Sequence record: PV763136.1
Source: Escherichia phage vB_EcoM_YN3
Length of the DNA: 64,000 bases
Reading direction: 5' to 3' (one strand)
Part shown: piece after piece, positions 20,132 through 21,158 of the stretch
How positions within the stretch are numbered: position 1 is the stretch's first letter
How the letters are laid out: the number at the start of each line of letters is the position of its first letter
The notes under the pieces: model-generated
The model's database searches: none
The model's input: the letters and a program-made list of their open reading frames with translations, nothing else
Told to the model about the DNA's origin: nothing
Translations under genes and position numbers: made by a program

Positions 20132-20208
20132 TGGTCTCCACGGAGTGATTCGAACACTCGACCTCCTGATCCCAAATCAGGCGCTCTACCAAGCTGAGCT
20201 ACGCGGAG
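20132..20208 (-). tRNA. tRNA-Pro (UGG)
   Basis: 77 nt cloverleaf; acceptor CTCCGCG/CGTGGAG, T-loop TTCGAAT, anticodon loop TTTGGGA, CCA encoded. Confidence 0.8.
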
Positions 20209-20219
20209 TATTTACTATT

Positions 20220-20294
20220 TGGTGGCCCTGGGTGGAATTGAACCACCGTCTGGCGATTATGAGTCGCTTGCTTGAACCTTCCAGCTACAGGGCC
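20220..20294 (-). tRNA. tRNA-Met or Ile2 (CAU)
   Basis: 75 nt; acceptor GGCCCTG/CAGGGCC, T-loop TTCAATT, anticodon loop CTCATAA, CCA encoded. Confidence 0.75.
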
Positions 20295-20295
20295 T

Positions 20296-20371
20296 TGGTG
20301 CTGATGGCAGGACTTGAACCTGCAACCTATTGATTACAAATCAATTGCACTACCAATTGTGCTACATCAGC
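20296..20371 (-). tRNA. tRNA-Thr (UGU)
   Basis: 76 nt; acceptor GCTGATG/CATCAGC, D stem GCAC/GTGC, anticodon loop TTTGTAA, T-loop TTCAAGT, CCA encoded. Confidence 0.75.
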
Positions 20372-20376
20372 AAAAA

Positions 20377-20475
20377 GGTGCTAGGCGGTGGAATCGAACC
20401 ACCTATGTATTCAACGACTACCTCGTCTATTTTCAGGATTAAAAATCCTCGCCCTTGCCAAAGGGCTTACCTAGC
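20377..20475 (-). tRNA. atypical tRNA-Lys (UUU)-like gene, 99 nt with about 30 nt extra in the variable region
   Basis: acceptor GCTAGGT/GCCTAGC, D arm GCCC/GGGC, anticodon stem AGGA/TCCT with loop TTTTTAA, T arm GGTGG-TTCGATT-CCACC; no encoded CCA. Confidence 0.45.
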
Positions 20476-20573
20476 TCAGTATGTTGACCATGTTGCTAGT
20501 CGGCGATGACGACTGTAACATTTGATAATCCGGTTCTGCTTCCGGCTTTCGCTTAATTACAAGGTCAACAATG

Positions 20574-20664
20574 TGGCGGAGAGTAATGGAATCGAACCAT
20601 CATCGAGTCATCCTCAATGGGACGGTTTTCAAGACCGCTTGAGCACCATTGCTCCCTACCCTCC
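20574..20664 (-). tRNA. tRNA-Ser (UGA), long variable arm
   Basis: 91 nt; anticodon loop CTTGAAA, long variable arm, T-loop TTCGATT, discriminator G, CCA encoded. Confidence 0.7.
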
Positions 20665-20778
20665 TTTATAAATTATACTGATAATGACACTGATTTTCGA
20701 GCAGTTAGTGACTAGTATAAACGACGATAAATATCAATGCCATTATCTGTATGATTTATGCATCTAAAAATATAAATT

Positions 20779-20866
20779 TGGTGGTGAGTGATGGAGTCGA
20801 ACCACCCGAATCGCAATGATAACAGATTTACAGTCTGCCCCGCTACCCCTACGGAATTAACTCACC
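20779..20866 (-). tRNA. tRNA-Tyr (GUA), long variable arm
   Basis: 88 nt; acceptor GGTGAGT/ACTCACC, anticodon loop CTGTAAA, T-loop TTCGACT, CCA encoded. Confidence 0.7.
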
Positions 20867-20996
20867 TAAATACTAATATTTAAATTCTTTTTAAAATAGC
20901 TAGTGTTCTAACCACTAACTATGAGGTATCGGTAAAGTGGTTACCGCCACTTGCCGAAGATTTACTCTGCTAAAGTAAGCTACATTAAAAAGAACT

Positions 20997-21071
20997 TGGC
21001 ACCCCGTACTGGACTCGAACCAGTGTCAACGGCTTAGAAGGCCGCTGCTTTATCCACTAAGCTAACAGGGC
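20997..21071 (-). tRNA. tRNA-Arg (UCU)
   Basis: 75 nt; D arm GCTT/AAGC, anticodon stem GCGGC/GCCGT with loop CTTCTAA, T-loop TTCGAGT, CCA encoded. Confidence 0.75.
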
Positions 21072-21129
21072 ACTGGGTGGCTTTCTTTTACACCTGAGCC
21101 GCCAGAAAAGGTGGGAGACCATGTTTACA

Positions 21130-21158
21130 ATATTACACTGTTAAGCAAAGTTTGTCAA
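21130..21158 (-). promoter_or_regulatory. sigma70-type promoter driving the tRNA cluster
   Basis: minus strand TTGACA - 17 nt - TAATAT, about 50 nt upstream of tRNA-Arg. Confidence 0.65.

Follow-up and report, generated by a model that had tools for sequence, protein, structure and literature searches.

Two structured RNAs within a Vequintavirus tRNA operon: a tRNA-like element and a leader RNA of tRNA-Tyr

The tRNA cluster considered here lies at 20132-21158, on the minus strand, of a stretch of 64,000 nucleotides (nt) from Escherichia phage vB_EcoM_YN3 (PV763136.1), which was analysed as a whole and is called the window below. A first-pass annotation of this DNA had placed seven tRNA genes there, and ARAGORN and Rfam confirm the place and the strand of the cluster. 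Six of the genes are sound tRNAs by these programs, while the seventh, described as Lys-like, is a tRNA-like gene of 99 nt whose lysine identity fails. We are fairly confident that the locus is a Vequintavirus tRNA operon, mostly a codon supplement, to which two RNAs other than tRNAs have been added: a tRNA mimic made from the 99-nt gene, named here the tRNA-like element (TLE), and an RNA in front of tRNA-Tyr, named here the Tyr-leader. Gene content, folds, covariation and codon statistics were obtained directly, and the functions that we discuss for both RNAs are put forward as hypotheses.

As such, the locus is ordinary and nothing new, for it is the published rV5-type tRNA operon. The phage of the window is a Vequintavirus (rV5-like). 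In sequence searches with the region 19600-21400, identity was 99.9% for Escherichia phage BP9 and about 98% for the type Vequintavirus, rV5 (V5), and 729 phage records share some part of the region. At this place, the record of rV5 carries annotations for tRNA-Arg, Tyr, Ser, Thr, Met and Pro together with a sigma-70 promoter, P(tRNA), and the rV5 paper of 2013 (PMC3606486) described six tRNAs and compared the usage of AGA, ACA, CCA and TAC between phage and host; therefore, the finding of the locus was already known. What is new here is the two structured RNAs embedded in it without annotation, the TLE and the Tyr-leader. Of the gene finders, ARAGORN calls Pro-tgg, 'Met'-cat, Thr-tgt, the 99-nt gene with no assignable anticodon, Ser-tga and Arg-tct. 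Rfam at the gathering score finds Thr, Arg, Pro, 'Met' and Tyr, so that Tyr-gta is added beyond ARAGORN, and with relaxed filters it also picks up Ser and the 99-nt gene. The predicted arrangement, in which several tightly spaced tRNA genes stand on the same strand between a promoter and a terminator, is that of a T4-type operon.

The TLE occupies 20377-20475 on the minus strand and scores 31.0 bits in Rfam, with a gathering threshold of 29. Its sequence is GCUAGGU-AA-GCCCUU-UGGC-AAGGGC-G-AGGAU-UUUUA-AUCCU-GAAAAUAG-[hairpin]-UGAAUACAUA-GGUGG-UUCGAUU-CCACC-GCCUAGC-ACC. From 5' to 3', it is formed by a 7-bp acceptor stem, a 6-bp stem with a tetraloop and a 5-bp stem with the 5-nt loop UUUUA, followed by the motif GAAAAUAG, a variable hairpin, the motif GAAUACAUA, the T arm and an ACC tail. 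Both motifs are conserved, and about 18 conserved single-stranded nt flank the variable hairpin. Homologues are spread over the whole of Vequintavirinae as a single copy per genome, in Vequintavirus, Avunavirus, Seunavirus, Mydovirus and metagenomic relatives, where public records label them as tRNA-Lys, tRNA-OTHER, tRNA-TERM, tRNA-??? or a small coding sequence, or give no label. The literature searched holds no description of this element.

The fold is conserved well beyond the sequence of the window. In a MAFFT alignment of 15 distinct TLEs, all 345 of the 345 cells in the four helices are paired, with 8 compensatory pairs; RNAalifold independently gives the same structure, which is also the minimum-energy fold of each sequence taken alone. 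With 22 distinct TLEs, paired cells amount to 527 of 527 and 12 of the 24 pairs are compensatory, whereas control alignments with the 3' partners slid by 1-3 columns are paired in 34-47% of cells. Moreover, covariation links position 3 of the D-like tetraloop to position 3 of the T loop: 14 sequences have G-C there, 8 have U-A, and the two are unpaired in none. This D-loop:T-loop pair is the equivalent of the G19-C56 elbow, so that the TLE very probably adopts the L shape of a tRNA. A covariance model built on the family gives 79-123 bits to TLEs, with one copy per phage, and at most 31 bits to every true tRNA.

Besides this elbow, the TLE has the 7-bp acceptor, the 5-bp T stem and the UUCRAUU-type T loop of a tRNA, fully paired in the 22 sequences and with compensatory changes. 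The anticodon arm is where it departs from tRNAs. Its stem has 5 bp, the closing pair of which covaries (U-A versus C-G), and its loop has 5-6 nt, with eight sequences in the 22 orthologues: UUUUA, UUAUA, CAUCCA, CUUCCA, CCUCCA, CAGCCA, AUCAA and GUGAUA. Neither a 7-nt anticodon loop with U33 nor a conserved anticodon is found among these orthologues. Also, where a tRNA has U8, a D stem of 3-4 bp and a D loop of 7-11 nt, all copies have A8, a 6-bp stem and a 4-nt loop. In the phage's own tRNA-Ser, in contrast, neither the UGA anticodon nor the 7-nt length of the loop changes between genera. With a loop of 5-6 nt and of varying sequence, the TLE would be unable to act as a normal decoder, and we conclude from these comparisons that it represents a selected, tRNA-shaped and in all likelihood non-decoding RNA family. 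Most likely, it would be a stable tRNA mimic that binds or titrates some tRNA-recognising factor.

Several candidate relationships of the TLE were tried and rejected. ARAGORN, Rfam, alignment and the covariance model give no support for a homologue of T4 rnaC/rnaD, of tmRNA or of YrlA. A strict pattern run over 185,579 bacterial genomes returned one match, in a metagenome-assembled genome of Anaerolineales, which the covariance model rejects and which is attributed to chance; among the metagenome pattern matches, 4 of 22 were chance matches. The Rnl1 ligase was also considered as specifically linked to the TLE, and this was discarded, since 768 phage records have an Rnl1 homologue, a range much wider than that of the TLE. 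A 215-amino-acid (aa) protein is conserved upstream of the TLE in sister genera and absent from the window; taken as a guide to further loci, it gave 7 in IMG/VR.

Behind the TLE, sister genera have some 190 nt of conserved noncoding sequence (L004 2100-2290; L006 2536-2729; L007 2534-2718; L030 about 5305-5500). It is closed by an A/U-rich stem, comprises at least two subfamilies and has no Rfam match; one subfamily starts with what may be a 5' fragment of tRNA-Leu(UAA), including CACUUAAAAU. Just upstream of the TLE, Seunavirus and Mydovirus have a tRNA-like gene that is called Arg-gcg, Ser-cga or with a 2-base anticodon (L006 2354-2427; L007 2351-2425; L008 2598-2672), which may be another non-canonical tRNA-like RNA.

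The second embedded RNA, the Tyr-leader, takes up the 130 nt between tRNA-Arg and tRNA-Tyr (20867-20996, minus strand). It consists of a 114-nt core at 20883-20996, running from AGUUCUUUUUAA to UUAAAAAGAAUU, and of a 16-nt linker to tRNA-Tyr. In rV5, the same gap measures 4 nt and the Tyr-leader is absent. Folding of the stretch gives a four-way junction (z = -4.3), which a 12-bp A/U stem closes. Over 12 distinct copies, the 38 consensus pairs are paired in 99.8% of cases, 7 of them being compensatory, versus 38-55% in slid controls, and the hairpin CUUACUUUAGCAGAGUAAA is almost invariant. No Rfam 15 family matches it (E ≤10 in the window and E ≤1 in six other loci), no description of it was met in the literature searched and no convincing -35/-10 pair is found within it. 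That the 130-nt stretch is a strain-specific junk insertion is ruled out by a distant search, which found the Tyr-leader in 176 phage records, annotated in none of them.

The carriers of the Tyr-leader are a subset of Vequintavirus, Phapecoctavirus and Justusliebigvirus (the latter two with ≤97.7% identity), Certrevirus, T5-like Tequintavirus and one Pseudomonas phage. In most of the copies examined, it starts right behind the CCA of the preceding tRNA or behind a promoter, and its end touches either tRNA-Tyr itself or a tRNA-Lys that precedes tRNA-Tyr. An exception is the diverged Tyr-leader of Avunavirus, which follows tRNA-Ser while tRNA-Tyr is elsewhere in the cluster. In T5-like phages, it stands between an extended -10 promoter (TGATATAAT) and tRNA-Tyr, and it is present in 25 of 155 records, the rest having an unrelated 45-nt leader. 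The promoter of this type, TTGCTC-17-TGATATAAT, looks strong (L063 560-600; L085 215-250; L087 150-195). The 16-nt linker of the window, UAAAUAUUAGUAUUUA, resembles part of the short leader of the T5-like phages that have no Tyr-leader.

In the window, the tRNA-Tyr next to the leader is 100% identical to that of Phapecoctavirus Schickermooser and 88.5% identical to that of rV5, from which it differs by compensatory changes. Being of the Phapecoctavirus type and diverged from that of rV5, it shows that leader plus tRNA-Tyr have been exchanged between unrelated subfamilies, and the two form a cassette that passes horizontally between phage families. The Tyr-leader RNA would be freed when RNase P cuts the 5' end of tRNA-Tyr, and it would aid the expression or processing of this tRNA or else act on its own. 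The tRNA itself would add to the supply of tRNA-Tyr, possibly against defences that deplete it.

For the six tRNAs, all on the minus strand, the comparison set was formed by the E. coli K-12 isoacceptors and the T4 cluster, aligned to the phage sequences. tRNA-Arg(UCU), which reads AGA/AGG, lies at 20997-21071 (ARAGORN; Rfam 67.8 bits) and shows 76% identity to E. coli argU with the same anticodon loop; the top of its acceptor is a G1-U72 wobble, which is G1-C72 in argU. tRNA-Tyr(GUA), at 20779-20866 including CCA (Rfam match 20782-20866, 39 bits), is a class II tRNA with a 3-nt insertion ahead of the D stem, 70-71% identical to E. coli tyrU and with the anticodon loop of the host. tRNA-Thr(UGU), at 20296-20371 (ARAGORN; Rfam 79.5 bits), is 72% identical to thrU, and U32 in the place of the host C32 is the sole difference in its anticodon loop. 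tRNA-Pro(UGG), at 20132-20208 (ARAGORN; Rfam 66.4 bits), shares the loop of proM at 76% identity and is 85% identical to the tRNA-Pro of T4, which therefore accounts for hundreds of T4-like matches in the search with the region. tRNA-Ser(UGA), at 20574-20664, was called by ARAGORN, its best Rfam match being tRNA-Sec with 41.2 bits (threshold 47). With A8 and a short D loop, it is an atypical tRNA, whose form is also kept in other Vequintavirinae and in Stephanstirmvirinae, and it is 68% identical to its host counterpart with the same loop as serT. Across genera, its cloverleaf, UGA anticodon and 7-nt loop are maintained, with 16 of 28 pairs compensatory in relatives. It might also be drawn with an 8-bp acceptor and a 4-bp T stem. 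Altogether, the tRNA bodies are 68-77% identical to the host isoacceptors (n = 6), and the anticodon loops equal those of the host in five of six (argU, tyrU, serT, ileX and proM), though the anticodon stems do differ.

The remaining tRNA, with anticodon CAU (20220-20294), is 'Met'-cat for ARAGORN and Met in public records. Its identity to ileX is 77%, versus 61% to metT, and its loop is that of ileX. The acceptor reads GGCCCUG...CAGGGCC and contains C4:G69 and C5:G68, where E. coli tRNA-Met has U4:A69 and A5:U68; these are the pairs that E. coli TilS uses as identity elements of tRNA-Ile2 (PMC11947777). Because of the likeness to ileX and the presence of both pairs, this gene is almost certainly a tRNA-Ile2, which would decode AUA after conversion of C34 into lysidine, instead of a tRNA-Met, and the flag of a possible Ile2 raised in the first-pass annotation is borne out.

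Codon usage was compared between the 86 non-overlapping open reading frames (ORFs) of the window and 42 annotated genes of E. coli K-12. The five codons most enriched in the phage, whose G+C content is 43%, are AGA (12-fold), AGG (10-fold), AUA (3.9-fold), CCU (3.7-fold) and ACA (3.6-fold), followed among others by UCU (1.7-fold), CCA (1.65-fold) and UCA (1.5-fold). Their decoders are Arg-UCU, Ile2-CAU, Pro-UGG, Thr-UGU and Ser-UGA. The structural module goes further than the rest of the window, with AGA making 35% and AGG 16% of its Arg codons and AUA 20.5% of its Ile codons. TAC shows no bias (1.03-fold), while Tyr codons overall are 1.55 times as frequent in the phage, and AAA/AAG are not enriched as a family, AAA being depleted (0.79-fold). 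Five of the six tRNAs, which serve rare codons and codons ending in A/U, are thus a case of classical codon supplementation, with Tyr excepted; the rV5 paper had put forward this argument before. The set had been described as not an obvious codon-usage supplement; since five anticodons fit enriched codons, this statement is wrong for five of the six genes. Moreover, the identity of the CAU tRNA as Ile2 would account for the decoding of the AUA codons that the phage uses so often. The five tRNAs would relieve the decoding of AGA/AGG, AUA, ACA, CCN and UCN codons.

Regarding transcription, a predicted sigma-70-type promoter, TTGACA-17-TAATAT (21158-21130, minus strand), matches the consensus at 10 of 12 positions and coincides with the P(tRNA) annotated in rV5; in relatives, the leader keeps 98-100% identity. 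Taken as a class, promoter-like sites show no enrichment in this region, 7 being counted against 4.3 ± 2.3 in shuffled sequences. At the other end, a predicted intrinsic terminator (19728-19760, minus strand) combines a bulged G+C-rich hairpin at 19734-19760 with U6, and folding gives it -16.9 kcal/mol and z = -3.4; a simple terminator scan overlooked it because of the bulged stem. The first-pass annotation had proposed both signals, which these results support. It had also included a small gene at 19816-20085 (minus strand) in the transcript. The ORF list does contain there an ATG ORF of 89 aa, homologous to gp069 of rV5, hypothetical in rV5 and BP9 and with no Pfam match; its co-transcription with the tRNAs is probable.

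The host sigma-70 promoter at 21158-21130 would probably give a single polycistronic precursor ending at the terminator of 19728-19760, from which host RNase P, endonucleases and 3' trimming enzymes would produce the mature RNAs, by analogy with T4. An internal start at 20700-20672 is possible within the operon. It lies in the Tyr-Ser spacer (20665-20778, minus strand), where a promoter-like TCGAAA-17-TATAAT with 10 of 12 matches stands just upstream of tRNA-Ser. This spacer is an imperfect palindrome of about 94 nt, with an inverted match to itself, and forms a long imperfect hairpin at about 20668-20759 (fold z = -4.2); it could be an internal promoter or a processing hairpin. The spacer from Ser to the TLE (20476-20573, minus strand; 98 nt) is noncoding and conserved at 93-100% in Vequintavirus, with a modest fold (z = -2.6). 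After the 3' end of the TLE, CCUUUUU scores as terminator-like in a simple scan (window 20382-20405 and 20372-20381, minus strand), and it could cause partial termination ahead of tRNA-Thr in Vequintavirus.

The cluster is plastic in relatives. Escherichia phage V18 has a chimera of the 5' half of tRNA-Tyr and the 3' half of the TLE (L005 1951-2043), with Ser and the spacers deleted, which looks like a natural recombination between two variable arms. In 241Ecol014PP, a gene for an HNH homing endonuclease is found in the place of tRNA-Pro, which is undetectable (L040 1428-1769), and in SSE-121 an HNH gene comes just after the TLE (L033 516-1010). About 19 records named 'Campylobacter phage' (MG0656xx) are 98-99% identical to the rV5-like phages of E. 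coli in this region, and their host labels seem doubtful.

Among known systems, the closest in organization is the tRNA cluster of T4, with eight tRNAs and the species I and II RNAs (rnaC and rnaD). Both clusters are polycistronic, on one strand and from a large virulent coliphage, and they have in common the five anticodons Pro-UGG, Ser-UGA, Thr-UGU, Ile-CAU and Arg-UCU. In T4, species I and II are structured RNAs other than tRNAs that are co-transcribed with the tRNAs (PMC2330249), and the TLE and the Tyr-leader would be in the same situation here. Homing endonucleases invade both clusters as well, segB in T4 and HNH in 241Ecol014PP. The differences are in the gene order, in the presence of Tyr and absence of Gln, Leu and Gly in the rV5-type cluster, and in the tRNAs other than Pro, which are no closer to those of T4 than to those of E. 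coli (68-72%). The TLE covariance model has no match on rnaC/rnaD in the T4 locus (L017), and global identities of 60-68% are noise, so the embedded RNAs are better seen as analogues of species I and II than as homologues, the formal comparison being that of the TLE.

Other likenesses concern single elements. The long variable hairpin relates the TLE to class II tRNAs, which are the best-scoring true tRNAs under its model (Ser, Tyr and Asn-like, 25-31 bits), and the 6-bp D stem with a 4-nt loop resembles that of bacterial tRNA-Sec. The TLE differs from both in its unconserved 5-6-nt loop, in A8 and in the long single-stranded linkers GAAAAUAG and GAAUACAUA around the variable hairpin, and its acceptor/T lengths are 7/5 instead of the 8/5 of tRNA-Sec. 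Noncoding tRNA mimics, the bacterial Y RNA-like YrlA among them, imitate the elbow of a tRNA (T and D arms) and thereby engage tRNA-binding factors, which is also the proposed mode of the TLE. However, the acceptor-stem ends of the TLE are free and no Ro60 gene was noted nearby, and the Rfam YrlA model gives 16.6-25 bits (threshold 69) with matches on true tRNAs and none on the TLE. The anti-defence tRNAs of T5-like phages resemble the present case in several ways: a phage-encoded tRNA-Tyr whose anticodon loop is that of the host while its body has diverged, the presence in some of them of the same Tyr-leader between the extended -10 promoter and tRNA-Tyr, and RNA repair genes in the same phage. 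Unlike them, the Vequintavirus cluster has no true tRNA-Lys and no loop substitutions, and it is known here from its sequence.

RNA repair genes were also part of the first-pass annotation, which saw a module next to the cluster. The heal-and-seal genes do exist, although several ORFs and 3-5 kb separate them from the cluster, upstream of which they are found: an Rnl1-type ligase (25037-25972), an AAA_33 kinase (24529-24993) and a metallophosphoesterase (23967-24623). On the plus strand, a cREC_REC protein, with a cyclic-phosphate processing receiver domain (25969-26319), is directly downstream of the ligase and has beside it a Sir2-family protein (26328-27089), which suggests a larger module for RNA repair or related to nicotinamide adenine dinucleotide.

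These genes bring in the question of whether the cluster is mainly a counter-defence, that is, a set of nuclease-insensitive or over-expressed replacements for host tRNAs cut by anticodon nucleases, working together with the heal-and-seal enzymes. We consider this rather doubtful as the main role. In its favour, phage tRNA-Tyr has been reported to rescue T5-like phages from retron-Eco7, and phage tRNA-Lys from PARIS and PrrC (PMC11555353, PMC11464382), and the work of Azam et al. (PMC11555353) found that rescue from retron-Eco7 needs a 'tRNA-Tyr promoter' fragment, with no leader RNA described. The tRNA-Tyr of the cluster, which has no codon-bias rationale and is exchanged as a cassette between phage families, fits these published anti-retron roles by analogy, short of a proof. 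Besides the ligase, kinase, phosphoesterase and cREC protein, the tRNAs are no exact copies of the host isoacceptors, whereas exact copies had been named in the first-pass annotation as what would speak against its reading; with bodies 68-77% identical, the defence idea survives to that extent. However, the anticodon-loop mutations proposed as signature of evading phage tRNAs (PMC10264068) are absent: the substitutions at nuclease recognition positions that had been suggested as a check were not seen in the alignment to E. coli isoacceptors, five of six loops being those of the host and Thr differing at position 32 alone. Moreover, five of the six anticodons fit the most enriched codons and are explained without defence, there is no real tRNA-Lys, and Rnl1 homologues are widespread in phages that have no such cluster. 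In summary, the anatomy drawn in the first-pass annotation was largely right and its functional reading mostly wrong.

Our own reading of the two embedded RNAs has to be weighed against other explanations too. One is that the 99-nt gene is an unusual genuine tRNA-Lys(UUU), class II-like, with a 4-bp anticodon stem and the loop UUUUUAA, which decodes AAA/AAG. The Rfam tRNA model indeed aligns it with this loop (31 bits), the discriminator is A73 as in tRNA-Lys, and some records, those of Mangalyan and LL12 among them, call it so. Still, the pair that would need to open for a 7-nt loop covaries (U-A versus C-G), orthologues of sister genera have 5-6-nt loops (UUAUA, CAUCCA, AUCAA and GUGAUA), ARAGORN assigns no anticodon and other pipelines say OTHER, TERM or ???. 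If we add A8, the D arm of a 6-bp stem and tetraloop, the about 18 extra conserved single-stranded nt and a codon family whose AAA is depleted, a decoding tRNA-Lys is highly improbable, and the 'Lys species' of the first-pass annotation is to be abandoned. A second explanation, which we find unlikely, takes the TLE and the spacers as decaying tRNA pseudogenes or neutral filler and the Tyr-leader as selfish DNA without RNA function, similar to a miniature inverted-repeat transposable element. Among the tRNA-like genes of Vequintavirinae clusters, several are indeed degenerate and receive anticodon calls that disagree, the loss of the TLE did no visible harm to V18, and the Tyr-leader is patchy in Vequintavirus and in T5-like phages. 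Decay does not agree with a TLE that is fully paired, with 12 compensatory pairs and a covarying tertiary pair, while neighbour proteins are about 65% identical across genera. Nor does mobile DNA agree with a Tyr-leader in which internal helices covary too, beyond its ends, which always has one orientation and abuts the 5' end of a tRNA, and which has no second copy in the window. Some points do weigh against the operon reading that we prefer. A mobile DNA element would likewise account for two features of the Tyr-leader, its A/T-rich inverted repeats of 12 bp at the termini and its patchy presence, and the variants that are devoid of Tyr, Ser and TLE (V18) or of Pro (241Ecol014PP) mean that parts of the cluster are dispensable on permissive or laboratory hosts. 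The TLE alignment comes from few clades, so that shared ancestry makes part of the covariation counts; the 42 genes of the E. coli sample come from one 50-kb stretch and stand neither for the whole genome nor for the true host; and promoter and terminator are predictions from consensus and energy. Finally, the top of the TLE hairpin in Vequintavirus (GAUUUUUAAUC) matches the anticodon stem-loop of E. coli tRNA-Lys (GACUUUUAAUC) at 10 of 11 positions, which makes a Lys-related role possible; this likeness is confined to Vequintavirus and not common to the other genera.

The operon with its two embedded RNAs has consequences for annotation as well as for biology. The change from 'tRNA-Met' to tRNA-Ile2 is an annotation correction, and counting the TLE as a tRNA-Lys would mislead studies that tie phage tRNAs to the evasion of PrrC and PARIS. 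In Vequintavirinae, Stephanstirmvirinae, T5-like phages and a Pseudomonas phage, the Tyr-leader and tRNA-Tyr are physically coupled, and the leader moves with this tRNA from one family to another. It can be speculated that both RNAs are anti-defence or tRNA-management factors acting at the RNA level, the TLE as a decoy or inhibitor of tRNA-acting effectors and the Tyr-leader by boosting or protecting tRNA-Tyr, as against retron-Eco7, although we give this proposal only a small chance of being right. Under it, the Vequintavirus TLE hairpin would possibly copy the tRNA-Lys anticodon stem-loop that is the target of PrrC, RloC and PARIS. Phage tRNA-Tyr and tRNA-Lys have been shown to beat retron, PARIS and PrrC systems, and therefore we think that both RNAs are testable candidates for modulating that conflict. 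If true, an anti-defence role of either RNA would mean a new class of phage noncoding RNA, and it would hint at what the stable RNAs of phage tRNA operons, long without an explanation, are for.

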